This document shows positions 11,014 to 36,035 of a stretch of 64,000 bases of DNA, piece after piece (the first letter of the stretch is position 1; every line of letters begins with the position of its first letter). The position numbers and the translations under genes were made by a program. This DNA is from Phycisphaerae bacterium (GTDB lineage: Bacteria > Planctomycetota > Phycisphaerae > WQYP01). The notes below the pieces were generated by a model. The model was given only the letters and a program-made list of their open reading frames with translations, ran no database searches and had not been told where the DNA came from. The DNA lies in assembly GCA_035504095.1 (NCBI GenBank), contig DATJSN010000001.1, forward strand, positions 54,519 through 118,518, written 5' to 3'.

Positions 11014-11107
11014 AGGGTTTTCCACCGCTCAAACGCCGTTTTTCCTTTTGACTTTTTGCTTCGCTTGTGTACGGTAACAAGCCGATAATCAAGAGAGGCG
11101 TATTCTC

Positions 11108-11974: not shown

Positions 11975-11981
11975 AAAAACT

Positions 11982-12362: not shown

Positions 12363-12510
12363 CGACGTCTCCTGAAAATTTCCTCTTGAGGTCGGTTATG
12401 TTAACATCTGGGCTCTGTGTAGTCTCATGGCGGCCCAAACCAGGTAAATCACGGTTTCCCGCCTTATTGCTGGTAAGAACCGGGAATTTCTAACTATAGC
12501 GGAGTTTTGG

Positions 12511-13950: not shown

Positions 13951-13991
13951 TTCCACGTCACATGTTTTTATGAGTCATTACGAGTCTCCGG

Positions 13992-15143: not shown

Positions 15144-15157
15144 TATGGATCAGTTCG

Positions 15158-17008: not shown

Positions 17009-17139
17009 TGAGAGTCCTCCCCCATGTTAGAGCCGTATCATGTATGAGAAACTCTAACCTTATAATGAGCCAGGATCAACCATAAACCTCAAAACTCAAT
17101 CAACACTAGCCAACCGGCAATGCAACCTTCATTCTTTCT

Positions 17140-17988: not shown

Positions 17989-18082
17989 GAAAAATCGCCT
18001 TATGCTTCCGGTCATTATACAGTGGCCGCATTGTTATGGCCCTGGAATTCTCTGATAATCTCCTCGGCATCATGCGGAGTAA

Positions 18083-19963: not shown

Positions 19964-20022
19964 TCAGAGAATTTCGATTAAACTTGCTTTTATCTAATGG
20001 AGCTTAATTGGGAGGCATTTAA

Positions 20023-20244
20023 ATGGACCAACCATCAATTGAACAGCGTTATACCCAGTTGCGGGCTCTTACCAGTGACCCAACTGCGACTGCTCTGCTG
20101 GTATTGGCTGAAGTAATCCAGGCCAAATCCGCTATGGATCAGGATTCCGCCGCCCGGCTGGGAAGCGAAATTAAACTCGCCCTCGATCACATGTTCCATG
20201 TGAAGGTAGAGGGGGAAATTCACAGCGCTTCGAATGAAGTGTAA
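20023..20244 (+). CDS. Small hypothetical protein (73 aa)
   Basis: Strong RBS 'GGGAGG' 8 nt upstream of the ATG. Predicted helical. No recognisable family. Confidence 0.35.
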   Translation: MDQPSIEQRYTQLRALTSDPTATALLVLAEVIQAKSAMDQDSAARLGSEIKLALDHMFHVKVEGEIHSASNEV

Positions 20245-20277
20245 GAGGCTTTTAAAATCCATCGTGAAAGGTTTTGC

Positions 20278-21201
20278 ATGTCCTTACTGGTTACAGGTTC
20301 TATCGGCATAGATAAAGTTGTTACGCCGTTTGGGGCAAAGGAAAATATTCTCGGCGGCTCGGCGCTCTATTTTTCCTGGGCTGCCGTTCATTTCTGCAAA
20401 GTCTATCTCGTTGGTGTGGTAGGGGAGGATTTTCCTTCGGAATTCGATTTTGTTTTTGTCCATCCCAACATCGACGCACGCGGCCTGGAACGCCGGAAAG
20501 GAAGCAAAACCTTCCGCTGGGCGGGTCGTTACGATCAGACCATGAACGAGGCTACAACCACGGCTGTTGACCTGAACGTCCTGATTGAAAAATCACCTGT
20601 GATTCCGGCGGAATACGCCCAAAGCCGGGTGGTTTTTCTGGCCGCGACCCATCCGGATTTGCAGATGCAATTGCTTTCGCAGGTTCATAAACCCAAACTG
20701 GTTATTTCCGATACACGCGACCTGTGGATTAAAAATCACCGCGCGGAACTTATGAAGAGCCTAAAAAAAATTGATGGTCTGGTGCTTAATGATTTTGAGG
20801 CGCGCCTGCTGACCGAAAAGGTTAATCTCGTTTCCGCGCTCCAGCAGATCCGCAAGCTCCTCAAGCCCGGCGGGCCGCGGCTGGTGGTGATCAAAAAAGG
20901 CGAGCACGGCTGCCTCGCCGCCTATGACGATTCACTCTTCGCCATGCCGGCGTATCCAACGGAAAAAGTCGTCGACCCCACCGGCGCCGGCGATAGTTTC
21001 GCCGGCGGATTGCTTGGTTATATGACCGCACAAAAACGCTGGTCGCCGGTAATCTTTAAGCAGGCGGTCGCGGCGGGGACCATCATGGCCAGTTTTACCA
21101 TTGAAGATTTTTCCCTCGAAGCCTTGCGCCGAGCCAATCGAAGGACAATCGGGTCGCGTATGAGGGAATTTCGCAAGATGGTCGCACACGGCCTTGTCTG
21201 A
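20278..21201 (+). CDS. PfkB-family carbohydrate kinase
   Basis: Ribokinase-family signature 'DPTGAGDSFAGGLLGYM'. N-terminal GG-containing motif. Confidence 0.8.
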   Translation: MSLLVTGSIGIDKVVTPFGAKENILGGSALYFSWAAVHFCKVYLVGVVGEDFPSEFDFVFVHPNIDARGLERRKGSKTFRWAGRYDQTMNEATTTAVDLNVLIEKSPVIPAEYAQSRVVFLAATHPDLQMQLLSQVHKPKLVISDTRDLWIKNHRAELMKSLKKIDGLVLNDFEARLLTEKVNLVSALQQIRKLLKPGGPRLVVIKKGEHGCLAAYDDSLFAMPAYPTEKVVDPTGAGDSFAGGLLGYMTAQKRWSPVIFKQAVAAGTIMASFTIEDFSLEALRRANRRTIGSRMREFRKMVAHGLV

Positions 21202-21773
21202 TGAGATTATTTGTCGCGATAACAGTTTCTGAAGCCTTACGCGCCGAGCTTTTCGCTCTGCAAAAACGTTTGGAGCAGGCTAAGGCCGAGGTGCGCTGGG
21301 TAAAGCCGGAACAGTATCACATCACGGTCAAATTTATCGGCGAGGCTGCTGACGATCAGTTGGTTCAAATTGCCGCTCGCATGGACTCCGCCGCCGCGGC
21401 GACCGAGCCATTTAAACTGGATATCATCGGTCTGGATCGCATCGAATCGCGCGGCAAGGTGCGGGTGATTACCGCCGAGGTTAATTCACCCGACCAGCGG
21501 CTAACGCGTTTGCATCGGCAGGTGGATCAAAAACTTGCAGGCATGGGATTCGATCTGGATATGCGAGAACTTTTGCCGCACATCACGCTGGGAAGAGTGC
21601 AAAGCAATCATGGATTGAATCGGTTACTCAGACGGCTGGAACATTTTTCGCCGGACGCCATGGAACCCATTAGCGGCTGGGAAGTCGTGGACGTGCATTT
21701 ATTTCAAAGCACTCTGACCCCGGAGGGATCGGAATATAAAATATTGCATACCGCAAAGTTAGGCTCTGTTTGA
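21201..21773 (+). CDS. thpR: RNA 2',3'-cyclic phosphodiesterase (2H phosphoesterase, LigT/ThpR)
   Basis: Two HxT/S motifs: 'HITVKFIG' and 'HITLGRV'. Overlaps the upstream stop. Confidence 0.8.
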   Translation: MRLFVAITVSEALRAELFALQKRLEQAKAEVRWVKPEQYHITVKFIGEAADDQLVQIAARMDSAAAATEPFKLDIIGLDRIESRGKVRVITAEVNSPDQRLTRLHRQVDQKLAGMGFDLDMRELLPHITLGRVQSNHGLNRLLRRLEHFSPDAMEPISGWEVVDVHLFQSTLTPEGSEYKILHTAKLGSV

Positions 21774-21902
21774 TGAATACCCCCTCCACGTCCACTGCGT
21801 TAAAACGTCTCCACACTCGAAGATTTTTGTCGATGGTATCGGCGTTAGATTCAGCTATGTTGCGACGTTATAATCGACAAAAACGCTAATTTTTAATAAA
21901 TT

Positions 21903-22556
21903 ATGAAAAATATAATATTAGTAATACTTGGAGTGCTATCTTTTACTATAGGTGGCGCATTAGTCCTTGCTTGGCCCGTATTCGTCTATCTTTCAATTTT
22001 TGAGTTTGACGCGCCAAGCCGCGGTCCTTGGGATTATCCTGCTCGTTATGCCATCGTTTGTGCTCTTTTAGCTTATCCTATTCCGTATATTCTGGCTTTA
22101 ATCTTTTTAATACGACAATGGCATAGAGACAGATTTCATGTGTTAACCTCGCTTTCTGGCTTAATTCCATTTCTGTATATTGCTGGCTTTTTTACAATAA
22201 TAGTTCTGATTTCGACAACGATGTCTCATAAGACAATCGCACCAAATGTCATTTTGAAAACGGACGGGACCTATTATTCTTTAGTAGATAATAATGGGCG
22301 AGTGATTGTGGATCAAAACGTTATATCTTACGAAGTTATCGGTTCAAAACAATTGGTTTTGGTAAGACGAGCTCCTCTAAGGTTAGTAATCGACAATATT
22401 ACTACGTATAACTTATCAAACAACCTATATTATGCTGTAAATACGCTGAATGGTTCTGTATCAGCTCCTCTTTCTAAAAGTGAGTTCCAAAAAAAATATG
22501 CTTTGCCTGATGAATCGCAGGTATTCAAAGATTCGATGCAGATGCCGGGAGAATAA
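21903..22556 (+). CDS. Hypothetical membrane protein encoded in a low-GC island
   Basis: Four N-terminal TM helices and a soluble C-terminal domain. Local GC is far below the window average. No SD sequence. Confidence 0.5.
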   Translation: MKNIILVILGVLSFTIGGALVLAWPVFVYLSIFEFDAPSRGPWDYPARYAIVCALLAYPIPYILALIFLIRQWHRDRFHVLTSLSGLIPFLYIAGFFTIIVLISTTMSHKTIAPNVILKTDGTYYSLVDNNGRVIVDQNVISYEVIGSKQLVLVRRAPLRLVIDNITTYNLSNNLYYAVNTLNGSVSAPLSKSEFQKKYALPDESQVFKDSMQMPGE

Positions 22557-22706
22557 AAAAGACTCTGCATCTACTATTTTCTCCACCGTCCTCTGAGCCC
22601 TCTGTGATCTCTGTGGCCTGTTCCTCATCGTGATATATAGCTATCGAGCAGGGGGGATAATAAGGCGGCAGGTCAATTAAAAATTTTTGCCATATAATCT
22701 TGTGCC

Positions 22707-24236
22707 ATGGCGGCGTGGGTCAAAATCATCATTTATTTTACGCTCTGCATGCAATTGCGAGCCTATTGGAAATATATTCCCATTTCCTATGACACCACGC
22801 GTCTAACCTCGCCGGTAAAACAGGATGGATCCATAGATTACCTGGCGGCACTGAATATAAAATGTTCCCAGGGCGTGACGCCTGAAAATAATGCGGTGGT
22901 GGTTCTTCTGCGCGCTGCGGGATCAGATTATATTAATGGCCCACCGGACTATAAAAAAGAATATATGAATATGCTGGGTGTGATGTCACTGCCGTCGCCA
23001 AAACATCCGTTCGTTTATTTGTACGATTATTTATCCAAGCACGGTTTTCAATGGCAGGACGTGGACCACATTTATGGAGAGGTAACGAGAAAGCCTTTTA
23101 CCGATAGCCAATATCCGCAAGTGGGGCACTGGCTCGATTCACAACAGGACTTTATCAACGCCTATCTGGCGGCTTCGCAGATGTCGCATTGGTATGACCC
23201 TATTACTAGTAATACAGAACAATTCCAGATGTTGGCCGGTTTTCCCCGCCTGCTTTCGGCATTTAAATTTATGACGGAGAGTGTCGGGATAGATGCCATG
23301 TATGATCTTGGAGAAAACGACGTTGATGTTGCTTTGGATGACGCCCTGGCTATTCATCGTCTGACTCATTTACAAGCTCGAGTGTCGGCTATGGTCGTTC
23401 AATTAATGATCGCTGGAAGAGAAGAGGAATTCGCGGCCGATATCGACCAGCAAATCATTGCCAGTGGACTATTGAGCACAAATGACGCCAAACGAATGGC
23501 GGATGCTCTGGGTGATTTAAGGCCGCTGCCGGCCTTTTCAGAATCAATTGATGGTGAAGAACGTTATTTTGCACTTGATGCTCTTGAGAATCTCGCGCGG
23601 GGACGTCATTATCAAGTAGGCTTTTTGCAAGGTTTTGGTCCAGCCCAGCCGCAGGCGGCATTTTCTCAATTCGTTGGGCAACTATTGCCCCCGCAGCTTT
23701 CCTCCTGGGATCAAATTTCATATTTATTTGACTGGTGTGTGTTTAGAGTTGTTCCGGTTCATTATGTATTTTTAATGATCCAAGACAATCATTTTTATGA
23801 CGACTGGATGCGAATTTCTCAGGCTAAAACTTATGATCAGGCACTGTCTGAACAAAAAACGCTGAATCCAGAATCGCGTATCATGGACAGCTCATTTGCC
23901 GACGATATAGTCAAAACAATCGCATGGCGGCCGTATATTTCAAATCGCCTTATTCAGGAACAGTTCGCATATCAAACCATTCTTCCGATGGTGCGCACCG
24001 AATATGCCCTGGCCGCCTGGCATACCGATCATGGTGATTATCCCAAAGTTTTGACCGCATTAGTCCCGCAATATCTGTCCAGCGTTCCCATCGATCCGTT
24101 TGATGGCCAACCGTTGCGCTATGCGCCAACCGCCAACGGCTACAGGCTCTGGAGCATCGGCGCAACCAAACCAGGACTTACAGGGTGGTTTAGTACGGGT
24201 CTGCAATTCACCATGCCGCCGGAAAAGCAAGACTAA
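22707..24236 (+). CDS. Hypothetical protein (509 aa) with an N-terminal hydrophobic anchor
   Basis: Long ORF in a reduced-GC region. No recognised motifs. Confidence 0.5.
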   Translation: MAAWVKIIIYFTLCMQLRAYWKYIPISYDTTRLTSPVKQDGSIDYLAALNIKCSQGVTPENNAVVVLLRAAGSDYINGPPDYKKEYMNMLGVMSLPSPKHPFVYLYDYLSKHGFQWQDVDHIYGEVTRKPFTDSQYPQVGHWLDSQQDFINAYLAASQMSHWYDPITSNTEQFQMLAGFPRLLSAFKFMTESVGIDAMYDLGENDVDVALDDALAIHRLTHLQARVSAMVVQLMIAGREEEFAADIDQQIIASGLLSTNDAKRMADALGDLRPLPAFSESIDGEERYFALDALENLARGRHYQVGFLQGFGPAQPQAAFSQFVGQLLPPQLSSWDQISYLFDWCVFRVVPVHYVFLMIQDNHFYDDWMRISQAKTYDQALSEQKTLNPESRIMDSSFADDIVKTIAWRPYISNRLIQEQFAYQTILPMVRTEYALAAWHTDHGDYPKVLTALVPQYLSSVPIDPFDGQPLRYAPTANGYRLWSIGATKPGLTGWFSTGLQFTMPPEKQD

Positions 24237-24272
24237 TTCTCATTCCGGATTTAAGAAGATAGACTATGCAGA

Positions 24273-26639
24273 ATGACCAGCGGTATAAATGATTCAAATT
24301 TTGTTTTAGCAACGAAAATATTTATGCCTTGTCGATTTAACATCGGTATCCCGGTGCTTCTGCTGGTCTTTGTTGCAGGCTTCGCTCGAGCCCAATCCAA
24401 CGTGGACTACATCGACCCCATGTTCGGTGCGATTACCGATGTTCCTCGCGACTGGGGTGACGCGGCCGGTAAGACATTTCCCGGCGCCGACACGCCGTTC
24501 GGCCTGGTGCAACTAAGTCCTGATACCATCACCGGTGGGGATAGGGGTTCAGGCTATTCGGCCGACGACAAAACCATTGAAGGTTTCAGTTTTCTGCACA
24601 TGTTGGGTGTAGGATGTTACGGCGACCTTGGTAACCTGCAGGTCATGCCTGAAACCGGACCGCTTATCATCGACCGCACTACGGCAAAAAGCGCATATCA
24701 ACAGAAAAATCAAGTCGCTACCGCCGGCTATTACAGCGTGGTTCTGGACCGTTACCAGGTGAAGACGGAATTGACCGCTGCGCCCCATGCCGGCTTCATT
24801 CGTTTTACTTTTCCAGCTTCGGTTTCCAGTTATATTAAATTCGATCTCGCTCGTCGCATCGGCAAGCTCGCCGACTCTCATTCCACGGCTCAATTCATAC
24901 ATCAGTTGGATGCTTATACCGTGGAAGGTTGGATATACTGCGACCCCAGCAGCGGTGGATACGGTTGTTTTCAACGCGTTTCGCACTATACCGTTTATTT
25001 CTACATGAAATTCCATGATCCGATTAAATCATTCGGTATATGGGATGGCCAGGATGTTTCGCGCAGTCTTACGGAACTGAACGGCAAGAATTCCGGTTTT
25101 TTCATTGAGTTTCCTACTACGCAGGGGCAGCAGGTCCTGGTTAAAGCAGGCATTTCTTTTGTGAGTATGGATGGCGCTCGCGCCAATCTTTTGCATGACA
25201 TTCCGGGTTGGGACTTTGACGCCGTTCACCAACAGGCACGAGCGCTTTGGGCCAGCGCCATCTCCAGAATAGATGTCGAAGGCGGTTCTGACGCAGACAG
25301 ACGGATTTTTTACTCGTCGCTTTATCAATCAATGATCGATCCGCGCAATATTGTAGATGTGAATGGTTACTACGCCAGCTCGGATGGCAAGCCACACAAG
25401 GCTAACGGATTTATCGTTCGCAGCATTTTTAGTGGCTGGGACGTATACCGCGCCGAATTCCCGCTCCAGAACCTGATCAATCGTAGCATGGTTAATGATG
25501 AAATTAATACGCTGATGCAATTAACCCAACAGGGTGACGTAAAGGGTCTTGCCCGCTGGGAATTGCTGGGTATAGACACAGGCGAGATGGTGGGCGATCC
25601 GGCCATTTCCATTATTGCCAATGCCTATCTGCAGGGAATTCGTGGTTACGATGTGCAGAAAGCCTATCAACTCTGTCGCGCCGTAGCGCTGGGGCCGGCC
25701 GATCAATCGAATCGCGTTGATTTTAACGATTGGATCAAGCACGGCTATTGCATGGGAAAACTGTCTATCTCCGCAACGCTCGACAATTCCTATGATGACT
25801 ACTGCCTGGCGCAGTTTGCTCAAGCACTTGGAAAGACCGACGATGCCGCTCAATTGTATAAATCCGCGCAAAATTACCGCAACATCTTTGATTCCAATAT
25901 CCAATGGTTTCACGGCCGCACTGTCGACGGTAATTTAATTCCCTGGCAGGGTTTCACGACATTTGGTCAGGGCTGTATCGAAAGCACTCCGGGACAGGAG
26001 GGTTGGTACGTGCCGCAGGATGTGCAGGGTTTAATCAATTTATTGGGCGGCCGGGACAAATTCGTCGCCCGGCTCAATGAAATGTTTGAGAAAACGACTC
26101 CGGCGATGATGGTGCAGTGGAATAATTATTACAATATCTCCAACGAAAACGTCGAGCAATGTGCGTTCATGTTCACTTATGCAGGCGCGCCTTGGCTTAC
26201 GCAGAAATGGTCCCGTTATACTTGCTCTACCGCATACAAGACTGGCCCATACGGTCTGCCTGGCAATGACGATGAAGGAGAATTATCCGCTTGGTATGTA
26301 CTGGCCGCTTCTGGTTTTTATCCCGTGTGTCCCTGCAGCAACGTTTATATCCTGGGTAGTCCGGTCTTCTCCCGGGTGACTTTCCATCTTGACTCAGCAT
26401 ATGCCGGTGGAGGAAAAACATTCAGCATCGTCGCTAAGAATAATTCCCCGGTCAATATCTATATCCAGTCGGCCCAGCTTGATGGAACGCCGCTCAAGCG
26501 CGCCTGGATCACCTATCAGGAAATTTCCAATGGCGGCACACTGGTACTCCAAATGGGGCCCACTCCCAATAAAACCTGGGGTTCTGATCCGCAAGACGCG
26601 CCGCTGTCGCTTTCCATGCCGCTACAAAAGCTGAACTGA
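24273..26639 (+). CDS. Secreted glycoside hydrolase, GH92-like (putative alpha-mannosidase family)
   Basis: Signal peptide. 'KTFPGADTPFGLVQLSPDT' and 'GFSFLHMLGVGCYGDLGN' resemble the GH92 N-terminal signatures. Confidence 0.45.
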   Translation: MTSGINDSNFVLATKIFMPCRFNIGIPVLLLVFVAGFARAQSNVDYIDPMFGAITDVPRDWGDAAGKTFPGADTPFGLVQLSPDTITGGDRGSGYSADDKTIEGFSFLHMLGVGCYGDLGNLQVMPETGPLIIDRTTAKSAYQQKNQVATAGYYSVVLDRYQVKTELTAAPHAGFIRFTFPASVSSYIKFDLARRIGKLADSHSTAQFIHQLDAYTVEGWIYCDPSSGGYGCFQRVSHYTVYFYMKFHDPIKSFGIWDGQDVSRSLTELNGKNSGFFIEFPTTQGQQVLVKAGISFVSMDGARANLLHDIPGWDFDAVHQQARALWASAISRIDVEGGSDADRRIFYSSLYQSMIDPRNIVDVNGYYASSDGKPHKANGFIVRSIFSGWDVYRAEFPLQNLINRSMVNDEINTLMQLTQQGDVKGLARWELLGIDTGEMVGDPAISIIANAYLQGIRGYDVQKAYQLCRAVALGPADQSNRVDFNDWIKHGYCMGKLSISATLDNSYDDYCLAQFAQALGKTDDAAQLYKSAQNYRNIFDSNIQWFHGRTVDGNLIPWQGFTTFGQGCIESTPGQEGWYVPQDVQGLINLLGGRDKFVARLNEMFEKTTPAMMVQWNNYYNISNENVEQCAFMFTYAGAPWLTQKWSRYTCSTAYKTGPYGLPGNDDEGELSAWYVLAASGFYPVCPCSNVYILGSPVFSRVTFHLDSAYAGGGKTFSIVAKNNSPVNIYIQSAQLDGTPLKRAWITYQEISNGGTLVLQMGPTPNKTWGSDPQDAPLSLSMPLQKLN

Positions 26640-26648
26640 TTCTTATTT

Positions 26649-26782
26649 AAAATCAGTGGCCAGCGTCACATCGCGCCAGGTTTCGATTTCTTTGCTTAGG
26701 GAATTTATTTTTGTCGTCGCACGCTGGTAGGCGAGGGCACCTAGCAGCAAATGCAATGGCGGATTTTTGCTGGTGACCGCGT
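26649..26782 (-). pseudogene. Detached 3' fragment (about 44 codons) of an SDR oxidoreductase gene. It is one copy of a 134-bp direct repeat.
   Basis: About 95% identical to nt 32728-32861, the 3' end of the intact SDR gene. It translates to '...LLGALAYQRATTKINSLSKEIETWRDVTLATDFK*' and has no upstream coding continuation. Confidence 0.6.
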
Positions 26783-26799
26783 ACAGATTTAAATACAGA

Positions 26800-27494
26800 T
26801 TATGTATCGGGTGAATTGCGAATGGCGAATCTAAGAAGTTCAGCGCTGTTTTTAAAGTTCAATTTTTCTTTAATGTGTTCACGATGAGCTTCGATGGTTT
26901 TGATGCTCAGGCATAACTTGTCGGCGATCTGTTTGACGTTGTTACCGGCTCCAATCATGCGAAAAATTTCCAGTTCACGATCGGTCAACCGGTCCATTGG
27001 CAGTCCGCGGTCGCGTTTTTTGCCGGCAACCATCCGCTGCAGAAGCACAGCGTTCATTTTGCTGCTGACATATACCTGACCTGACAGAACGGTGCGGACC
27101 GCGGTTAACAGTATTGGCGGCGCCTCCTGCTTCATCACATAACCACCAGCGCCAGCGCGCAGCGCCCGTTCAGCATATATTGACTCATCGTGCATGCTCA
27201 CGACAAGCGCCGGCAGGTTGGGAAACTGTGATTTGAGTTCCTTTATTAACTCGATGCCATCGCTGTCTTTCAACGAAACGTCCACCATGACCAAATCGGG
27301 TTTTGCGCCGCGTATGGCACGAAGCGACTGAAAGGCATCTTCACCCTGGCCAACGACAATCAAATCCGCTTCATTGTTAATCAATTGCGCCAATCCCTGG
27401 CGCACAATGGGGTGGTCATCGACAAGAAAAATTTTCCGCTTGCCGGCCAGAGATGGCGAGGATGACGAAACTGCAGGCGTTTTTGCTTTGCTCA
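26800..27494 (-). CDS. Two-component response regulator, NarL/FixJ (LuxR HTH) family
   Basis: REC domain 'KIFLVDDHPIVRQGL...LVMVDVSLKDSDG'. LuxR HTH 'LTDRELEIFRMIGAGNNVKQIADKLCLSIKTIEAHR'. Confidence 0.85.
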
Positions 27495-27502
27495 TGATCG
27501 TC

Positions 27503-28411
27503 TCATTGTGTCTTGACGCTGGTATCCGGACAAGTAAAGTCCAGATCGAAAATGACGGATACCCGATTGTCAGCCTTAATAAGACCAAAAAACGCGGAAG
27601 GCGGAATAATTCCATAGTCACTCATGAGTACGTCGAATTTCGACCAGACATAAAAATGCCCATAAACATCCCGTTGCACAAACATATTTGTCAAAAGTGA
27701 TCGTTGCACGCCGGCGAGGGTCAGTTTTCCTAAGACGAGCAAATCCAATTCCGGCCGGCCGTTGGCATCCCACTGGATTTGAGCCCGCTTTAGCTGTTCG
27801 AAGATATAATCGATGGCGGGATTCCGCTGAGCATTCAAGGCATCATGTAAATCGTGGTCACGAGCGGCGTTATCACTGCGCAAAGACACGACCGGCAATG
27901 ACAACGCACCGCTCGGCGGATCGTGCAACGTTGAGGTCGCTGGGAAATCGGCAGCAGCAATTGCAACCGATTTAGCGGCGTTGTTTCCCGCGGCGTCATC
28001 CTGGTTCGGAGCCTGAGGAAGATGATTGAACCAACTCTCGAGCTTAGAACCGGAAACAGCGAGGATCACCTGGCCCTGAACCTGGGTGCTGCGGCTATAC
28101 CATGAACCTATGGTCGCCGTGCCATTAAGTTCCACATAGCTGTCAGGACTTATCACAAAATGCAAAGGCGTTTTCTGGGCGTTGAAGTCGACCACCAACG
28201 GTTTGGAAACTTCCACCTGTGCACCCTGGGGTTGGGCGGGTGGATCGCTGCACGCCGGCAGTAACAGAGCGATCAACAGGCAGGGCAGACTCAGTCCGAA
28301 GGAGGCAAAACGTGGTTTACGTGGACGTTGTGGACAGCGGTGATTATCTGACGTGCAATCAACGCAAAACCGCGAATGACCGATTTCGGGCTGGAAAGTT
28401 CCTTGACTCAT
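27503..28411 (-). CDS. YceI-like domain lipoprotein
   Basis: Lipobox 'LLPAC'. 'RDHDLHDALNAQRNPAIDYIF' resembles the YceI core. Confidence 0.55.
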   Translation of the reverse strand: MSQGTFQPEIGHSRFCVDCTSDNHRCPQRPRKPRFASFGLSLPCLLIALLLPACSDPPAQPQGAQVEVSKPLVVDFNAQKTPLHFVISPDSYVELNGTATIGSWYSRSTQVQGQVILAVSGSKLESWFNHLPQAPNQDDAAGNNAAKSVAIAAADFPATSTLHDPPSGALSLPVVSLRSDNAARDHDLHDALNAQRNPAIDYIFEQLKRAQIQWDANGRPELDLLVLGKLTLAGVQRSLLTNMFVQRDVYGHFYVWSKFDVLMSDYGIIPPSAFFGLIKADNRVSVIFDLDFTCPDTSVKTQ

Positions 28412-29112
28412 TTTCCTGCATCAGATGCTGAAGTTGTCAGTTGCCAGGTCGCGGTCACGGTGATCGCGTCTCCGGATTTAATTATGCCTAACATCGCCGT
28501 TGGAGGCTGCACGCCAAAGTCAGTCATTTTCAGGTTGGCGCTGGTGCTAATGGTCAAACTAGTATTATCCTGATGTGTTATAGCAAGTTCCAGAGATGTT
28601 TTCTGCGCTACGCCATTAACCGTCAGATTGCCAGTGGTATCAAAAACAAAGACATTATTTTGGCCATTCGGGGCAGGTTTCAAGGTCGCTTTAGTCAGTT
28701 GATATGTAATCGTTGGATGCTGACTAGCATTCAGGGTGCCGTACATCGTGGAATCCATGCCCCCGCCTTCCGAGCTTTTGAGTGTGTAGACGGGGATGGT
28801 CAGTTGAATCGACTGCAGGCTTATGGGATTTGGGCCTGTGGTAGTCCATTCTCCCGACGTAGTCACATTGCCGCTGACTGTATTGCCCTGGGCGGACCAA
28901 TCGTGCAGTGTTGAGGTTCCTTTGATGGTGACATTGCCGGATGAAGCAGTGAATGTTGTGCCCTGCGGTGCGGACGCCGCAATCGAGGCAGCGCCCGCAA
29001 ATGTAATAACCAGGATAGCGAGTGCGGATACTCCAACTCCGCGCCAGGCCGCCACCTGACGGCCTGGCGAAGTAAGGAGGTGGTTGTGAAGAGCCTTAAA
29101 CAAGAAACACAT
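28408..29112 (-). CDS. YceI-like domain protein, secreted
   Basis: 'TIKGTSTLHDWSAQGNTVSGNV', 'MDSTMYGTLNASQHPTITYQL' and 'KMTDFGVQPP' resemble YceI family blocks. Overlaps the downstream YceI gene by 4 nt. Confidence 0.5.
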   Translation of the reverse strand: MCFLFKALHNHLLTSPGRQVAAWRGVGVSALAILVITFAGAASIAASAPQGTTFTASSGNVTIKGTSTLHDWSAQGNTVSGNVTTSGEWTTTGPNPISLQSIQLTIPVYTLKSSEGGGMDSTMYGTLNASQHPTITYQLTKATLKPAPNGQNNVFVFDTTGNLTVNGVAQKTSLELAITHQDNTSLTISTSANLKMTDFGVQPPTAMLGIIKSGDAITVTATWQLTTSASDAGK

Positions 29113-29125
29113 GTTCTGACTCCAT

Positions 29126-30787
29126 TTAAAAGCCGAAGGCGATCTCAGCAGTCACACCGCTGAAGCGTGGATTGTCGGAGGCGACAACACCGCTCACCAT
29201 ACCGGTGTCGGGGGCAAAGTTATAATACTGCTGATAGACGTACTCTACTTTGGTGAGAATACTCTTGGTCAGCCAGTAGCCGCCGCCAACCTGAACGCGT
29301 CCGACCCAGCCATTGGTGTCGACGCCATGAACAGCACCGGCATAAGCAAAACTATATTGTGCCGCCACATACAATGGAGCGGTGATATGGTAAGTCGCCA
29401 TGGCCTGCCCATAAAGCCACCGTTCGTCGTAGGCGGAGTCCTGGGTCCATCCGACATTTCCATACATTTCCCACGGCCAGTGGTTCCAGGTTATATCACC
29501 CTGATAAGCCTGAACATCGAGTCCGGCTTCAGGTGTGATCTGGCCGCCATCATCACCGGCATTGAAAATGCCGTTATAAGGTTCGCCACTGCGTGTGGAG
29601 GCATACAGATCCGTGATCTGATTATCGGTAGCGAGATCTTCGGCGTTAGCAGTGCCTCCGAGGTCGCAATAGTATACGGAAGCCGATAGCCGTAAATCAT
29701 TGCCGATATAGCCCCAAACTTTGCCGTGAACAGCAGGATTGCTGCCATAATCAAAGTAGCCGGTAGTAGTGCCGTTGCTAAATCCAGCCAGCCAGTATAT
29801 GGGACCTTTGACGGAGTAGAGTTCGAAACCGATTTGTTCTGCGCTGGGATCCACCACGGCGTTTCCAATCAATGGGTTAAGCTCAACGAAAGCGTTGTTC
29901 GACCGGTGGAAGTTTTGATCACCGAAGTCGATGTCAAATGCACCGGCTTTGAGATTGATATAGTTAAAGATATCTCCAATTGGACCGCCGGCGAAAGGAG
30001 GGGGCAATTGTTTAATGATCAAATAACCCTGGTCGCCATACGTCGTGCTGGGGTGCCCAACGCTGGATAGGTACAAATCGAAGAAGACATCCAATTTCCC
30101 GGGAATGGTTGCCAGAAAATCGAGATTGCCATAGGCCGTTTGGAAGCCCGGATCTAAACCAGGATACTCTACTGCGGGCATTGGAGGAGTGTGATAAGCG
30201 GCTTGCTGGGTGAGTGCCTGATAACGGCCGACGGTTTGCACGCCTATGTAAAATCGCATGTCCCCGAGCTGGCCTATCTGCATGTTCATATCAGGCCGAA
30301 TGTGTGAGGGATTCTGGTTTTCGAAAGGCGAAAAATAGTTGATGCCAGTTGGAGGAGTAAACATGTTCTGAAACGTCTCGGAAATGTTATTATCGGTAGG
30401 ATGTTCGGCAAGGTCCGCCGAAATCGTTTCGGAGTTGGACATGACCTCTTTGTAAATCGAATCAATGGCTTTGGCCTGGGCCTCGGCCGTGGCCTGAGCT
30501 GTGGCCTGGGATTCCGCTGTCGTGGCATTTTGCGTTTTTAGAACGGCGATCTGCTGTTCCAGGCTTGCCTCCGTAGCCTGGCTGGCGGCCTGGTCTTTTT
30601 TGAGAGCGGCCAACTGCTGCGCCATTGCCTGCATCTCGGCTTGTACTGCTGTGTTGCTGGTTGTTGTGGTGGTTGCGGCTGAAGTTGAGCTTGAATTTGC
30701 AGCGGCGGTATCGGCCCATAATGCCGGCACCGGCAAAGTTACGGCTGCAAGTGCGATACACATAGCCATTTTTTGTTTGAATGTCAT
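29126..30787 (-). CDS. Outer-membrane beta-barrel (porin-like) protein with an N-terminal coiled coil
   Basis: Signal peptide. Ala/Gln-rich heptad segment 'AVQAEMQAMAQQLAALKKDQAASQ...'. Gly/Tyr-rich alternating strands. C-terminal '...AEIAFGF' ends in Phe as in OMP beta-barrels. Confidence 0.5.
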   Translation of the reverse strand: MTFKQKMAMCIALAAVTLPVPALWADTAAANSSSTSAATTTTTSNTAVQAEMQAMAQQLAALKKDQAASQATEASLEQQIAVLKTQNATTAESQATAQATAEAQAKAIDSIYKEVMSNSETISADLAEHPTDNNISETFQNMFTPPTGINYFSPFENQNPSHIRPDMNMQIGQLGDMRFYIGVQTVGRYQALTQQAAYHTPPMPAVEYPGLDPGFQTAYGNLDFLATIPGKLDVFFDLYLSSVGHPSTTYGDQGYLIIKQLPPPFAGGPIGDIFNYINLKAGAFDIDFGDQNFHRSNNAFVELNPLIGNAVVDPSAEQIGFELYSVKGPIYWLAGFSNGTTTGYFDYGSNPAVHGKVWGYIGNDLRLSASVYYCDLGGTANAEDLATDNQITDLYASTRSGEPYNGIFNAGDDGGQITPEAGLDVQAYQGDITWNHWPWEMYGNVGWTQDSAYDERWLYGQAMATYHITAPLYVAAQYSFAYAGAVHGVDTNGWVGRVQVGGGYWLTKSILTKVEYVYQQYYNFAPDTGMVSGVVASDNPRFSGVTAEIAFGF

Positions 30788-31503
30788 AATCTGGTTCCTT
30801 TCACTTCTTTAAAGGTCAACCGCCCGGGGGATGCACACGCATCGCCACATCACATCGAGCCAAGATTGTGAAACTTTTCACATACGATTTCATTAATTAG
30901 CACCTGCCATTCATTTAGTAATCCACAAGTACCGTTGAATCCCGGACAATGGCTGCTAGCCATGAAATTCAACTTAACCTGAGTGTTCTGATGGCTCGGT
31001 AACTGTTTCATGTAATATCTAATCGCATATTTGGGGCGATGCCGCGATGGGTGGGACCATGATTTAGATGTAAGAATTGTTCCAGCGCGACATCGGAGAA
31101 TTACCTATGACGAGGAGACGGGGTACAGGCTATAGGCCACAGATTGAGAAAGAGGACAAGGGATAGGGAGATTACAAAAGCTTTCCCCAACGAGGATCAA
31201 TGATGGTGCCGACGCCAAAGATATTTACCGATTTTGCTTTACGTTGGGCTGAGTGTCCGGCATTTGGTTGTGTTGAATGTTTGCGATGCGAGCGCCCGCG
31301 GGAGTGAAGCGCCCTGTGGGGGAGGGTTTTAATGACGCCGGAGCCATGCAGTGCATGGGATGGTCGGCGCCGAATAAAATGGACCTTTTTTGCCATAAGG
31401 CGCACGCCATTTCTCTCGAACACTATTGAATTATCGCATGAAGATAACGGCAGGTTTATCAGAGGGGGCCACGCTTGGGGCGTAGGTTATTTCCCGATGC
31501 GGC

Positions 31504-32649
31504 CTAGCCTTTTCGGCCCAGACGGAACGAATGCTCGCGGCCAATCGTGCAGGTCACCATGGAGCCTCCGCCTTTGCGGGGCATGACCGCAAAGGTTCCG
31601 CCGATGACCCTGGCTCGATAATGCATGGTCTGAAGTCCCATACCCGCCGCGGGCGGTTTGTTTCGCCCGCTGTCTGCAGGTCCCTGCCTGACACTATCGG
31701 CCGCTGCTTCGGACATTCCCTTTCCGTTATCAGCTACGGAAAGGACAATGAATCCGCTATTTTCGGTCAGATTGATCTGGACATCACTGGCTTTGCCGTG
31801 CCGTATGGCATTGCTTACGGCCTCCTGAGCGATACGATAAAGATGCGTCGCTGCTGCGTCGCCGCGCACCCGGACCTTGCGGTCCCATTGAAAGGTGCAG
31901 CTTATGCTGAACGATTCGGTGACTTTGACCGCCAGATTTTCCAACGCCGCGGACAGCCCGCCGGCTTTGAGATCGACGGGATTAAGTCCATGGGCCAATC
32001 GACGAGCCTGACCGGCCGCTTCGCGGACCATTGCAGCCAGTTTCGCCATCGACTCTTTATCCGAATCGGCAGGCAGGTTTCGCGCGACGGCTTCTATACC
32101 GAAGGCGATGCCGATCAGGTCTTGGCATAGTCCATCGTGCAAATCCTGGCCGATGCGGCGCTGTTCATTGGCGGCGGCTTCCAGAATCTGTCGTTCCAAC
32201 CGTCGTCGCCCTGTCAGATCGTGTATGATGCCGGTGAATAACCTCTGGTCCTTGAGCCTGACCTCACTGACCGACAGATGCATGGGGAATGTCGTGCCGT
32301 TTTTATGGAGTCCGATCACTTCGCGGCCAATGCCAATGATCTTGGCCCGTCCGGTTCGACAATAATTGCGGATATAACCGTCATGTTCGCCGTGGAACGG
32401 CTCGGGCATCAGCCAGCTGACGTTTTTGCCTACGAGTTCGGCTGAGGAATATCCAAAGAGCTTTTCGGTGGCGGCGTTGGCGGATTGGATCATGCCGCGT
32501 TCGTCGATGGTGATGATCGCATCGGTCGCTGTATCCAATATCGCCTGGAGCAATTGCACACTTTGGTGGTGAACTTCTTCGGCTTTTTTACGTTTTGCAA
32601 CGCTGTGGGAATCAGCCGGTCCCCGCTGAGTTTTTTTCAAAATCGGCAT
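31504..32649 (-). CDS. Cytoplasmic PAS-domain sensor histidine kinase (HisKA_3 type)
   Basis: PAS domain 'LLQAILDTATDAIITIDERGMIQSANAATEKLFGY'. H-box 'QRRIGQDLHDGLCQDL'. HATPase 'LSVADNGKGM'. No TM segment. Confidence 0.8.
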   Translation of the reverse strand: MPILKKTQRGPADSHSVAKRKKAEEVHHQSVQLLQAILDTATDAIITIDERGMIQSANAATEKLFGYSSAELVGKNVSWLMPEPFHGEHDGYIRNYCRTGRAKIIGIGREVIGLHKNGTTFPMHLSVSEVRLKDQRLFTGIIHDLTGRRRLERQILEAAANEQRRIGQDLHDGLCQDLIGIAFGIEAVARNLPADSDKESMAKLAAMVREAAGQARRLAHGLNPVDLKAGGLSAALENLAVKVTESFSISCTFQWDRKVRVRGDAAATHLYRIAQEAVSNAIRHGKASDVQINLTENSGFIVLSVADNGKGMSEAAADSVRQGPADSGRNKPPAAGMGLQTMHYRARVIGGTFAVMPRKGGGSMVTCTIGREHSFRLGRKG

Positions 32650-32718
32650 GTTTGGATTTTAACGAAGACCCTTTAGTGTGACCAGTAAAGGCAATATTGT
32701 TTGCTCGTAAATCCCAGA

Positions 32719-33570
32719 TCATTTCTGAAAATCAGTGGCTAGCGTCACATCGCGCCAGGTTTCGATTTCTTTGCTTAGGGAATTTATTTTTGTCGTCGCA
32801 CGCTGGTAGGCCAGAGCGCCCAGCAACAGATGCAATGGCGGATTTTTGCTGGTGACCGCGTCAATAATGGCTTTGGCGCCGCGCGCCGGATCACCGGCCT
32901 GCACGCCTGCGTTTTCTTTTTGATAATTCAGCGTTTTTTCGGTGATCTGCTGATAATCCGGAAAACGCTTTTCAACCATCGCCAGCGACTCGCCGAGAAA
33001 GTCGGTGCGAAATGGGCCCGGTTCAACGATCGTGACGCCAATGCCCAGCGGGGCAACCTCCAGAGCCAAAGCTTCGGAGAGGCCTTCAATCGCGAACTTC
33101 GTGGCGTTGTAAATTCCCCAGCCGGGCAGTCCCACTAAACCGCCTATGGATGAGAGATTCACGATGTGCCCCCGGCGCTCGCGGCGCATGTGGGGCAGCA
33201 CGGCACGGGTTACGCGTAACAGGCCAAAGACGTTGGTCTCAAAGATTCTGGTAATTTCGGCGTCGCTGGCGCCTTCGAGTGCACCAAGCAAACCATAACC
33301 GGCGTTATTAATTAATACATCGATCCGGCCGAACCGCTGGATTGCCGAATCGACGGTTGCCGCAATTTGGGTGGGGTTGTCGAGGTCCATGGCCGCAGTA
33401 TGCAGGCGGTCCCCGGCATCCGCGAAAGCAGCCCGTACTTTTTCCGGCGACCGCGAAGTGGCCACGACGCAATCACCGCGATCCAGCGCAGCGCGGACAA
33501 GCTCACGGCCAAATCCCTGGGAAGTCCCGGTGATAAACCATGTGCGGCTATTTGAATTGTCTGCTGGCAT
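32719..33570 (-). CDS. Short-chain dehydrogenase/reductase (SDR) family oxidoreductase
   Basis: 'ITGTSQGFG' TGxxxGxG motif, 'NNAGYG', and 'YNATKFAIEGL' YxxxK motif. Confidence 0.85.
   Translation of the reverse strand: MPADNSNSRTWFITGTSQGFGRELVRAALDRGDCVVATSRSPEKVRAAFADAGDRLHTAAMDLDNPTQIAATVDSAIQRFGRIDVLINNAGYGLLGALEGASDAEITRIFETNVFGLLRVTRAVLPHMRRERRGHIVNLSSIGGLVGLPGWGIYNATKFAIEGLSEALALEVAPLGIGVTIVEPGPFRTDFLGESLAMVEKRFPDYQQITEKTLNYQKENAGVQAGDPARGAKAIIDAVTSKNPPLHLLLGALAYQRATTKINSLSKEIETWRDVTLATDFQK
32728..32861. repeat. Second copy of the 134-bp direct repeat (3' end of the intact SDR gene)
   Basis: Direct alignment to 26649-26782 with about 7 mismatches. Confidence 0.8.
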
Positions 33571-33717
33571 AAAAGCTCCTTTAAGACGAGATCATTCTAC
33601 GCATTTTGAAGTTTTAACGCAGAGAACCCCGCGATTTTTAACCACTGATGACACGGATAGAACTTCTCAGTGTTTTGTGTCATTTCGTAGTCAATAACAT
33701 TGTGTCCTTGAATCATT

Positions 33718-34377
33718 GTGGTGACAATATGCCTGAGAAATTTTATGAACCCATTTTCGTGGATTAAATATTCGCTGCACCTTATCCGAGAGCGATATTT
33801 GCCATCTTACATCGTGATCAATTTGCTTTTTTATGGCTGCATCGCGCTGGGAATGGTCTTGATTATGGTTCTACCGAGTCTTCGGGGCTCGACACAGCAA
33901 TCCGTGAAGGAGGCTTTAAATGGACCGGTTTTGGCTCCCGTGCAAAAAATTTACATCAGCGGCAATGTGGTTGCCGCCGCTGCAATTACGTTTGGAGTAA
34001 ATCTGATTCTCGCGACAGCCATGGCGCTCTCGCTGCCGTCGCTGTTTATTCCATTTATTGGAATAGCTATCGGGATGTTACGAGGGCTCTTTTGGGGGCT
34101 GGTATTTGGACCGGCGCCAAACGGCATGTTTGGCCTGCTGGCCACCCATTGGCCGGTGATGGTGCTGGAAGGGCAGGGGTACGTGCTGGGGATGCTCGCC
34201 GTTTATATCCATGGAAAAGGGATACTGCGGCCGGCGAGCGTCGACGCGACGGGCTTTTGGCAGGGATACCGGCGCGGATTCGTTGAATCCATGCGCATGT
34301 ATCCATTAATCGCGCTGGTGCTGGCGATCTCCGCCATCTACGAGGCGGCGGAGGTCATTTATCTAATGCATCATTGA
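33718..34377 (+). CDS. Polytopic membrane protein, hypothetical (SpoIIM/DUF95-like topology)
   Basis: Five to six TM helices. Sits directly upstream of the ECF sigma gene. Confidence 0.4.
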   Translation: MVTICLRNFMNPFSWIKYSLHLIRERYLPSYIVINLLFYGCIALGMVLIMVLPSLRGSTQQSVKEALNGPVLAPVQKIYISGNVVAAAAITFGVNLILATAMALSLPSLFIPFIGIAIGMLRGLFWGLVFGPAPNGMFGLLATHWPVMVLEGQGYVLGMLAVYIHGKGILRPASVDATGFWQGYRRGFVESMRMYPLIALVLAISAIYEAAEVIYLMHH

Positions 34378-34480
34378 TGAACAAATATTCGCGATATCAT
34401 AAAAACTATTTACGAAGATTTTGTCACACGTACCGGCCCGGAAACGACTAGTTTGCGGAGTCTTTGCTAAGGAGCCGGAT

Positions 34481-35956
34481 ATGACAACCATGCAACTGCC
34501 CAACACGCAAATAAGCGACGCCGAACTGGTGATCGGCTGCCGTAGCGGCAACCGTGAGGCCTTTGGCCATATTGTGCGGCGCTACCAAGGGATGGTCAGT
34601 GGGTTGATCTATGCCGACTGTGGGGACCTGGAACGCAGTGAAGATGTGGCTCAGGAAACGTTTATCTCTGCGTGGAGAAATCTGGGCGAACTCCGCGAAC
34701 CGGCGAAACTGGCCGGCTGGCTTTGTCGGATCGCACGAAACCGTCTGGTGGACCTGACACGAAATAACGCCCGCCATGAGGCTCTGATCGATCAAGTCGC
34801 GGAGCATCAGCGAACCACTACGGAGGCTTATCCGGAACAGGGCGTACTGTCGGATGAAGAAAAAGAATTGCTCTGGCGGACGCTTTCGGCGATTCCGCAG
34901 CCATATCGCGAAACACTGGTGCTCTATTACCGCCAGGGACAATCCACCGCCGAAGTGGCGGCGGCGACGCAGACAACGGAGATCACCGTTCGCCAGCGCT
35001 TGGGGCGCGGGCGGCAAATGCTGCGCGAACAGGTCAACGCCATGGTTGAACGGCAGATTTTGCGTTCGGCGCCGGGACCGGCATTTACGGTTGCGGTCGT
35101 GAGTGCATTGCCGGCGGCGATGGCTCCCACGGTAGCAGGCTTTGGCGCGGCGGCCAAAGGATCGGCGATGGCCAAGGGGACTAGCTGGCTTTTTTTACTG
35201 ACGGCGTGGATGGTTCCGATCCTGGCGCTTTTGACCATGGTCGCCGGAACGTGGCAAACCCTCCGCAACGCCAAGACGTCCGGATTGCGGCGGCTTTTCG
35301 GCTTCTGGTGGGTCATGATGTGGGTACTGGTCATAGGTTGGATAGTCGCATTCAACCTGCTGGTTGCACTGGGAGAATATCAGCATTGGAGTTACCAGGC
35401 TTTTGTAATCATGGAGTCGGCAATGGTCTGTCTTTACGGCGTGGCTGTTACCGGCCTGGCGGCGTGGCTTAAACTGGCCGCCCGAACCACATGGATAAGA
35501 GAAGGATTGCCCAATAATCCCGAACTGCTTCCAAGGCCGAAACTGGGATTCTGGATGCGGTTGCTGGTTTTCGCAGGTCCAACTGCGGCGGGTTTATCAT
35601 GGATGATTGAGATGGCGTTGCGAGCCGGAGACCATCTTTCGGCCGGCATTGTAGCAGCGGTCATCGGAGTCATTTGCCTGTTGAGCGCCTTTCAGAAGCG
35701 TGACCACAAGAAATGGCCCGATCCGGTACAGTCCATGGCGGGATATTTTTCATTGCTGGTTGTTGTGATGCTGGTGATGCTGAACTGGCGGTTGCGTATG
35801 TGGGTCGCAGGGCATGACGGCGTTTCCATCAGTCAGATACAGGGGGAGTTGCCGCTGTGGCCCATCAATTTATTTGCTGTTGTTTTGTTCGTCTGGATGG
35901 CGGCATTGATCAGGTTCACGAAGCGGCCGGGGCAGGAAGGAGGGAATAGGGAATAG
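34481..35956 (+). CDS. ECF (sigma-70 family) sigma factor fused to a C-terminal polytopic membrane domain
   Basis: RBS AAGGAG before the ATG. Region 2 'VAQETFISAWRNL'. Region 4 'STAEVAAATQTTEITVRQRLGRGRQML'. About 8 TM helices follow through the C-terminus. Confidence 0.7.
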   Translation: MTTMQLPNTQISDAELVIGCRSGNREAFGHIVRRYQGMVSGLIYADCGDLERSEDVAQETFISAWRNLGELREPAKLAGWLCRIARNRLVDLTRNNARHEALIDQVAEHQRTTTEAYPEQGVLSDEEKELLWRTLSAIPQPYRETLVLYYRQGQSTAEVAAATQTTEITVRQRLGRGRQMLREQVNAMVERQILRSAPGPAFTVAVVSALPAAMAPTVAGFGAAAKGSAMAKGTSWLFLLTAWMVPILALLTMVAGTWQTLRNAKTSGLRRLFGFWWVMMWVLVIGWIVAFNLLVALGEYQHWSYQAFVIMESAMVCLYGVAVTGLAAWLKLAARTTWIREGLPNNPELLPRPKLGFWMRLLVFAGPTAAGLSWMIEMALRAGDHLSAGIVAAVIGVICLLSAFQKRDHKKWPDPVQSMAGYFSLLVVVMLVMLNWRLRMWVAGHDGVSISQIQGELPLWPINLFAVVLFVWMAALIRFTKRPGQEGGNRE

Positions 35957-36035
35957 GAGTTGGGCACAGATTATAGTGGACAGAGAAAAGGGAATGGAAA
36001 GCGTCGTGACGAGCACGTCGGCTCAATAACAAATG

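Follow-up and report, generated by a model that had tools for sequence, protein, structure and literature searches.

A 5.9-kb block of five genes in the genome of an uncultured Phycisphaerae bacterium is flanked by direct repeats, one being the 3′ end of an intact SDR oxidoreductase gene and the other an orphan copy of that end. The locus was analyzed within a 64-kb stretch of contiguous DNA (the window), to which all positions refer. The arrangement is genuine, but as a scar of recombination it is rather ordinary, and nothing about it suggests a self-mobile element. Host recombination that joined two structural variants of a variable locus, through one homologous exchange and one illegitimate joint, is its best explanation, held tentatively and with slightly less than even confidence.

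The two copies (26649-26782 and 32728-32861) lie in the same orientation with a start-to-start distance of 6079 nt. By both MAFFT and blastn they are identical at 127 of 134 bases (94.8%), in agreement with the original prediction of direct repeats of about 95% identity. The pair has an E-value of 3e-56 in a blastn comparison within the window, and no third copy was detected by blastn in the 64 kb. The repeat sequence is not of low complexity, so the similarity goes beyond a few low-complexity bases. Seven mismatches (26661, 26733, 26736, 26739, 26742, 26747 and 26750) separate perfect runs of 12, 71 and 32 nt. Past a 3-nt gap corresponding to a Gln codon, homology extends through a Lys codon to the stop codon of both copies, at 26643-26645 in the orphan and 32719-32721 in the SDR gene.

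Copy 2 is indeed the true 3′ end of a complete gene, with the match to the orphan spanning 32719-32861 (minus strand) once the stop is included. The gene (32719-33570, minus strand) encodes a 283-aa SDR protein that matches Pfam adh_short (E 2.5e-50) and NCBIfam PRK06180 (344 bits, above the cut-off), and its orthologue in the nearest available relative, L082, shares 89% protein identity. The other copy was correctly recognized from the outset as an orphan fragment beside a GH92 gene, but its extent, given as 44 codons, is corrected here: the orphan (26643-26782, minus strand) keeps 45 full codons (AVTSK...ATDFK) ending in a TAA stop, plus 2 nt of a codon that has been truncated. It has neither a start codon nor upstream SDR sequence and sits only 3 nt from the GH92 stop (26637-26639). 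Its homology to the SDR gene breaks off abruptly at 26782/26783, inside the coding sequence at codon 238. The adjoining 17-nt spacer (26783-26799, ACAGATTTAAATACAGA), which separates the 5′ edge of the orphan from the response-regulator stop, is presumed to be a non-homologous joint or an att edge. [quoted passage not shown]

The differences between the copies follow a coding pattern. All seven are synonymous, the indel is in frame and the orphan retains a stop codon (TAA versus TGA in the intact gene). Over 44 codons the orphan encodes the same protein as the intact SDR gene, with a single Gln codon missing in frame. Under neutral drift of the orphan, such a synonymous-only pattern has a probability of 7e-5 to 3e-4. 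Because every difference is synonymous and the indel preserves the frame, the orphan probably derives from a separate functional SDR allele, within which it would have diverged, rather than drifting after a local duplication. Synonymous divergence (pS) is 0.21 between the copies against 0.51 between the window SDR and that of L082, and this lower value points to the functional gene of a close relative as the source of the orphan. Relative to all orthologues examined, the two copies also have derived residues (KINSLSKEIETW) in common. Of the seven differences, six fall within an 18-nt patch (26733-26750, minus strand; counterpart 32812-32829 in copy 2), where six codons in a row (Leu Leu Leu Gly Ala Leu) each carry a synonymous change, a clustering with P of about 5e-4 among positions able to change synonymously. 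Host recombination does not predict this cluster; one has to assume in addition that the allele was a mosaic or that gene conversion later acted on the flanks.

L082, the only syntenic relative, is colinear with the window over 12177-21766 and then runs from LigT directly to SDR. It lacks both the 5.9-kb block and a second variable segment (21774-26642, plus strand) that adjoins the orphan and contains the low-GC hyp217 (21903-22556), hyp509 (22707-24236) and GH92 (24273-26639). Since both segments are missing from L082, about 10.95 kb of the locus appears to be lineage-specific and composite, assembled in at least two steps. The proposal that a segment had integrated into, or been duplicated at, the SDR 3′ end is therefore upheld in part: the repeat is real and a related genome without the block exists, while duplication is disfavored by the seven synonymous differences and the in-frame indel. 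An empty site with GH92 next to SDR, also anticipated, was not found, L082 being without hyp217-hyp509-GH92 as well. When GH92 homologues were followed as a lead to such a site, the nearest were 61-64% identical and lay in unrelated contexts. SDR orthologues at 69-81% identity (L007, L083, L084 and L085) similarly have unrelated neighborhoods; L007 does have a regulator 3.3 kb from SDR, with unrelated genes in between, but this seems to be a coincidence. Residual homology between the LigT-SDR spacer of L082 and the four window junctions was no better than with shuffled sequence, and no third, degenerate SDR end, which would be a sign of tandem islands, was found near LigT. A codon-degenerate 41-nt repeat pattern used to seek close strains in JGI metagenomes gave 0 matches, and a PfkB scan of metagenomes returned a single 2.8-kb contig ending inside PfkB.

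As originally described, the five genes enclosed by the repeats point the same way; all are on the minus strand. A complete NarL/LuxR-type response regulator (26800-27495; Pfam Response_reg and GerE, NCBIfam MctR/NarL/FixJ-like, L001 gene call) begins 7 nt downstream of the second of two YceI genes, which encode YceI-like proteins of 302 aa (27503-28411; Pfam YceI E 7e-7) and 234 aa (28408-29112; E 9.5e-15). The 553-aa outer-membrane porin (29126-30787) consists of a signal peptide and a long coiled coil followed by a β-barrel; its AlphaFold2 model (mean pLDDT 71) has BpsOmp38, OprP, PorB, OmpF and DcaP as top Foldseek matches, with E of about 1e-12. Two YceI genes come after porin homologues in every case examined, and in four other Phycisphaerae lineages porin-YceI-YceI forms a standard cassette of the chromosome, located in housekeeping contexts and preceded by the same CRP-type box. 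In the window this box is a perfect palindrome (TGTGAAAAGTTTCACA, 30867-30882), conserved upstream of the homologous cassettes in L087, L095 and L099. It lies in the 716-nt non-coding leader of the porin operon (30788-31503, minus strand), which has no Pfam match in any reading frame and no Rfam match. The remaining gene (31504-32649) encodes a soluble, FixL-like haem-PAS histidine kinase with a HisKA_3 domain (Pfam; NCBIfam FixL, 144 bits), which matches the FixL haem domain of PDB 1dp6 (E 1e-30) and keeps the proximal His and the IGIGR loop. Promoter and terminator scans gave background levels. A second assembly (a 119-kb contig of an NCBI MAG, which may derive from the same reads) contains the porin as HTV46866 and SDR as HTV46868; these near-consecutive accessions indicate the same order as in the window, with a single gene separating porin from SDR.

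The original prediction had reported neither an integrase nor a transposase, and profile scans extend this absence to all 64 kb: no integrase, transposase or excisionase was found by Pfam and NCBIfam in the block, the 716-nt gap or the roughly 48 ORFs of the window. The gap contains no integrase pseudogene remnants, no Rfam families occur in 20000-36000, and the block ends have no terminal inverted repeats. A transposon or insertion sequence was rejected, there being no inverted repeats or transposase and a repeat of 134-140 nt of coding sequence; as had been argued, this is far longer than a transposon target duplication of 2-14 bp. Comparison of the block with its flanks, proposed as a test of foreign origin, detected no foreign signal: GC3 and codon usage of the block genes lie within the window spread. 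The GC, GC3 and codon usage of GH92 are equally unremarkable, leaving hyp217 as the only atypical gene. Nothing shows the block to be mobile as a unit, and its porin-YceI-YceI core occurs as an ordinary chromosomal cassette in other Phycisphaerae. On the preferred reading, the block would be a chromosomal operon set rather than a mobile element, with nothing inside it to catalyze its own movement. There is also no sign of an element family using this SDR site: orphan SDR ends were absent from about 85 other SDR loci, among which close relatives are thinly sampled, and viral contigs gave neither an orphan SDR end nor any match.

Under host recombination, the ancestral arrangement would have had LigT and SDR facing each other over a short spacer, as in L082. 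One variant, in this lineage, may then have carried hyp217-hyp509-GH92 ending 3 nt from the SDR stop, and a second, closely related variant the kinase-porin-YceI-YceI-regulator block directly downstream of its own SDR. These parental variants, the direction in which DNA moved and the nature of the joint are all inferred: DNA of one variant would have entered a cell of the other and been fixed by the host recombination machinery, through homologous exchange in shared flanking or SDR sequence and a non-homologous joint at 26782/26783. Such a process could be described as homology-facilitated illegitimate recombination or, in equivalent terms, as the Campbell-type insertion of a circularized fragment by a single crossover. 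The product would retain both segments and a complete SDR, and the 140-nt orphan (26643-26782) would be what is left of the other allele: the displaced 3′ end of a second version of the SDR gene that was once functional. Against this reading, neither parental variant was found, the sole syntenic relative lacks both segments, and the two metagenome scans were unhelpful. Illegitimate joints are, moreover, rare events. The anatomy of the locus is equally that of site-specific integration, as in the E. coli e14/icd control.

The next most plausible origin, which we nevertheless consider unlikely, is a site-specific integrative element of the e14/icd type that lost its integrase. Its attP would have contained a surrogate for the last ~46 SDR codons, so that insertion into the SDR 3′ end rebuilt the gene with the copy of the element and pushed the native end to the opposite side of the insert; later, the integrase and the rest of the element genes would have been deleted, or would act in trans, leaving an att-flanked, CIME-like cargo. 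The topology is exact (intact gene, block and orphan 3′ end in the same orientation), and a repeat of 140 nt at 95% identity with synonymous-only differences and homology ending at the stop mirrors icd/icdC, for which we measured a 165-bp duplicate (93% identity) with 10 of 12 differences synonymous and homology likewise stopping at the stop codon. For a 5.9-kb block, however, all element genes would have to have been lost precisely while both att sites survived. No recombinase, excisionase or element-type gene is found in the block, nor any such gene in the 64 kb, and the 716-nt gap holds no recognizable remnant. The 32-nt perfect stretch lies at the 5′ edge, where a core would be located, and two independent junctions, those of the GH92 segment and of the block, occur at the SDR stop codon. 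CIMEs are also a recognized class (PMC6323972). The cargo, however, is compositionally native with a common chromosomal cassette at its core, and neither the other SDR loci surveyed (about 85) nor viral contigs yielded orphan ends.

It is improbable that the block is an integrase-less cassette bearing a surrogate SDR end, which a recombinase whose gene lies elsewhere in the genome inserts and excises at the SDR stop codon. If true, the SDR 3′ end would serve repeatedly as a docking site and would have received at least two cargoes, GH92 and the oxygen-sensor/porin block, and the locus would exemplify a trans-mobilized, gene-end-replacing type of island not yet described in Planctomycetota.

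Only a small probability is assigned to a local duplication of the SDR 3′ end, arising for instance by tandem duplication and internal deletion, with later divergence. The copies are only 6 kb apart, in the same orientation and 95% identical, and gene conversion between them could have produced clustered differences with identical flanks. A non-coding orphan, however, should gather mostly non-synonymous changes and out-of-frame indels, the opposite of what is observed (P about 1e-4); no simple path of duplication and deletion places a copy exactly between GH92 and the regulator, and neither segment is present in the nearest relative. An assembly artefact, in which a chimeric contig fused two strain variants over a shared SDR end, is very improbable: the window does come from a MEGAHIT k141 metagenome contig, and two SDR alleles at strain-level divergence are expected in a mixed population, but a de Bruijn chimera needs shared k-mers at the false joint, whereas the 26782/26783 joint is unique on both sides, the copies can be told apart because their longest perfect run, 71 nt, is shorter than k, and the second assembly likewise places porin, one gene and SDR side by side.

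Returning to host recombination between variants, the locus provides, in an uncultured genome, a clean example of operon-sized gain without mobile-element machinery, and one datable through synonymous divergence. The pattern of repeat differences, all synonymous with an in-frame indel, can distinguish an allele acquired from a relative from a local duplication. As originally proposed, the block could be removed by homologous recombination: exchange between the copies would restore a complete SDR gene, and the repeats may now permit RecA-dependent deletion of the 5.9 kb. Populations are therefore predicted to be polymorphic, in a reversible manner, for the presence of an oxygen-sensing two-component system with its porin-YceI operon.

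Several known systems share parts of this anatomy. CIMEs resemble the block in having flanking direct att-like repeats and no integration or transfer genes (PMC6323972), but they are defined by a cognate ICE or IME on the same att site, and none was found for this SDR gene. Closer in layout is e14 in the icd gene of E. coli K-12, a site also used by phage 21, where an intact gene is followed by a block and, in direct orientation, by an orphan of the last ~50 codons (icdC). Its repeat measures 165 nt (93% identity) against 140 nt (95%) here, differences are nearly all synonymous, and recombination between the copies gives back a working gene (PMC6379469; PMC13626634). In contrast, e14 has intE, xisE and phage genes and excises on SOS induction, whereas the window block has no recombinase, phage or conjugation gene, is native in composition and consists of a two-component system and a porin-YceI operon. 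The orphan 3′ ends of Rhs/CDI loci and the orphan immunity arrays of the V. cholerae T6SS are scars of homology-facilitated illegitimate recombination, or of displacement, in which a conserved gene gains new DNA beside it through one homologous anchor and one non-homologous joint. There, the displaced 3′ portion of a resident gene is kept downstream as an orphan and no dedicated recombinase is involved (PMC5361080, with de Vries & Wackernagel 2002 and Prudhomme et al. 2002 as cited therein). These systems differ in that variable toxin ends are displaced under diversifying selection and form arrays, while in the window the displaced and resident ends specify one and the same protein sequence and the event is single. 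The locus reveals no new mechanism and fits known recombination scars.

The pair of roughly 95% identical direct repeats originally predicted to bracket a 5.9-kb gene block is real, and its description was accurate as a whole. Positions 26649-26782 and 32728-32861 match without gaps over 134 nt with 7 mismatches (alignment of 26600-26830 with 32680-32910), and a repeat search reported this pair too, with the match lengthened to 145 nt at 92%. When the SDR region was compared with the entire window by blastn, this pair came up at E = 3e-56 and nothing else rose above noise, so exactly two copies are present in the window. Read by hand in a codon alignment, both copies stay homologous beyond a 3-nt gap, as far as a Lys codon followed by the stop codon. 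Copy 2, the 3′ end of a complete SDR oxidoreductase gene (32719-33570, minus strand), ends in ATDFQK-TGA with its stop at 32719-32721. Copy 1, the orphan (26643-26782), ends in ATDFK-TAA with its stop at 26643-26645, just 3 nt from the stop of a GH92 gene (26637-26639) whose encoded C-terminus is complete. At the other edge, similarity ends abruptly at 26782/26783. This point falls within SDR codon 238, and 17 nt separate it from the response-regulator stop codon.

Family searches and gene calls agree with the gene list first given for the block. Between the copies, all on the minus strand, lie a soluble PAS/HisKA_3 kinase (31504-32649), a 553-aa protein without Pfam hits (29126-30787), two YceI-like proteins (28408-29112 and 27503-28411) and a NarL/LuxR regulator (26800-27495), with a non-coding stretch of 716 nt separating the kinase gene from that of the 553-aa protein. 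PfkB, LigT, a low-GC 217-aa ORF (hyp217), a 509-aa ORF (hyp509) and GH92 lie upstream on the plus strand. For the 553-aa protein, the structure model shows a signal peptide followed by a long coiled coil and then a porin barrel; Foldseek matches it to BpsOmp38, OprP, PorB, OmpF and DcaP (E about 1e-12). The kinase, a soluble FixL-like haem-PAS sensor partnered by the NarL/FixJ-like regulator, matches the haem domain of FixL in its PAS region (1dp6, E 1e-30) and retains the proximal His and IGIGR loop; it differs from rhizobial FixL in being joined to a HisKA_3 domain. The two probably form an oxygen-responsive system around the porin-YceI operon. A perfect CRP-type palindrome, TGTGAAAAGTTTCACA, occurs at 30867-30882, about 80 nt 5′ of the porin start. 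One to three copies of the same box, TGTGAAAtaTTTCACA, precede homologous porin-YceI-YceI cassettes on three contigs from other genomes (L087, L095 and L099), which points to a conserved predicted CRP/FNR-family operator of the cassette in Phycisphaerae; a degenerate copy is found on another, L086. Divergent from the SDR gene, and separated from it by a 210-219-aa ORF without family hit, is a gene (34421-35956, plus strand) for a protein of about 500 aa, whose first ~200 residues form an ECF sigma-70 domain (regions 2 and 4) and whose long C-terminal extension lacks a Pfam match. A 1149-aa PPi-dependent PEPCK-like protein (PF26300; 37913-41362, minus strand) adjoins a methyltransferase and rplM-rpsI.

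The anatomy of orphan and intact SDR implies that a chromosome with its own SDR allele became joined to DNA bearing a different one, with one copy cut at codon 238. Two routes are compatible with this. Our preferred though tentative explanation is a scar of host recombination. The LigT-SDR spacer would be variable, one variant having a GH92 segment that ends at the SDR stop and another having the block downstream of the SDR; one homologous exchange plus one illegitimate joint would then yield exactly the observed structure. Equivalent names would be homology-facilitated illegitimate recombination or Campbell-type crossover of a circularised fragment, and the block and the GH92 segment are both candidates for the incoming piece. 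Native composition, chromosomal cargo, the lack of a recombinase and a single event all fit host recombination. The block gives no foreign compositional signal relative to the window: GC3 and codon-usage distance of its genes and of GH92 fall within the window spread, and only hyp217 (21903-22556, plus strand; GC 37%, GC3 31%) is clearly atypical, most window genes having a GC of 47-58%. As originally stated, no integrase or transposase was found, nor any excisionase, relaxase or phage gene; the search covered the block, every reading frame of the 716-nt gap and all of the window's roughly 48 ORFs. No inverted repeats occur at the block ends, no Rfam family was found within 20000-36000, and no orphan SDR end was seen at about 85 other SDR loci or in viral contigs. 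There is no supporting sign that the block itself is mobile. Site-specific integration, of the type that placed the cryptic prophage e14 in icd of E. coli K-12, would leave the form seen here, orphan and intact SDR resembling icdC and icd; e14, however, has intE and xisE whereas the block has nothing of that kind. This origin, which we consider unlikely, would require either complete loss of the element genes with both att sites kept, the situation of a cis-mobilizable element (CIME; PMC6323972), or action in trans.

The differences between the copies bear on whether the SDR end was simply duplicated in place, as also proposed. Both copies translate to an identical 44 residues. Every one of the seven substitutions is synonymous (six transitions, one transversion), the copies differ in length by a single complete codon only, and the stop codon is retained. 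With a chance of 0.25-0.31 that a random mutation here is synonymous, such an outcome has P 7e-5 to 3e-4, indicating that the orphan diverged while part of a working gene. Drift after a local duplication conflicts with these features, which makes that history improbable and identifies the orphan as an allele remnant instead. pS is 0.21 between the copies and 0.51 between the window SDR and that of the nearest relative, and residues KINSLSKEIETW are common to both copies and different in every orthologue examined; the second allele therefore appears to have come from a close relative. Six of the seven differences are packed in six consecutive codons (LLLGAL; 26733-26750 and 32812-32829; clustering P about 5e-4), with identical stretches of 71 and 32 nt around them. 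This cluster may reflect a pre-existing mosaic allele, or patchy gene conversion that later homogenised the flanks, and is left unexplained by either main model. A de Bruijn chimera is very improbable, given that the copies are distinguishable (no perfect run exceeds 71 nt) and that unique sequence flanks the 26782/26783 joint on both sides. The window belongs to a 97-kb MEGAHIT contig (ENA ERZ27256528); the same proteins are present on a 119-kb contig of the NCBI MAG "Phycisphaerae bacterium", an assembly that may share reads with it, where porin (HTV46866) and SDR (HTV46868) have consecutive accessions with one gene between.

When one genome was searched for each species, SDR relatives were at most 69% identical; one closer SDR (P0002, 89%) was found in the protein database, on contig L082. 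This contig is colinear with window positions 12177-21766 at 72-76% nucleotide identity, and its LigT gene is followed by a 94-nt spacer and then directly by the SDR 3′ end. The predicted empty site, with GH92 adjoining the SDR, was not found among relatives. A variable region does exist, but it is composite and twice the size described, about 10.95 kb relative to L082, comprising hyp217-hyp509-GH92 (21774-26642, plus strand), the orphan and the block. At its left edge sits hyp217, for which Pfam gives no hit and the sole match is a weak one to a ComEC-like membrane protein. On L082, a DUF3631 protein gene (195-1937) lies directly upstream of the SDR at the contig end, and synteny with the window is lost about 12 nt before the SDR start; in this lineage pair the SDR thus has variable DNA on either side. 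More distant SDR orthologues (69-81% identity) have unrelated neighbourhoods. The nearest GH92 homologues (61-64%; Capsulimonas, actinomycetes and unassigned contigs) occur in unrelated contexts. Each porin homologue in Phycisphaerae (50-64%) has two YceI genes after it and lies in a housekeeping context, with a LuxR-type regulator upstream in one lineage and the kinase adjacent in none of the lineages compared. Two metagenome scans added nothing to this comparison. L086, from the same JGI sample as L082, carries at 10001-13132 a porin-YceI-YceI cassette 64% identical to that of the window; its chromosomal surroundings differ and include neither kinase nor regulator. Should it come from the L082 organism, that genome has the cassette at another location.

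Loss of the block by homologous recombination, as foreseen in the original prediction, is sound in principle. Simulated deletion between the repeats leaves a complete 282-aa SDR, lacking only the penultimate Gln of the present protein. With uninterrupted identity limited to short stretches of 71 and 32 nt, the deletion rate should be low.

Scars comparable to the host-recombination event favoured here are known at T6SS and Rhs loci (PMC5361080). In an E. coli K-12 control, the 165 nt common to icdC and the icd 3′ end contain 12 differences, of which 10 are synonymous, and homology does not extend past the stop codon. Like the SDR pair, e14/icd has a duplicated gene end reaching the stop codon (PMC6379469; PMC13626634). 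The SDR locus adds a new example to a known class of recombination scars.
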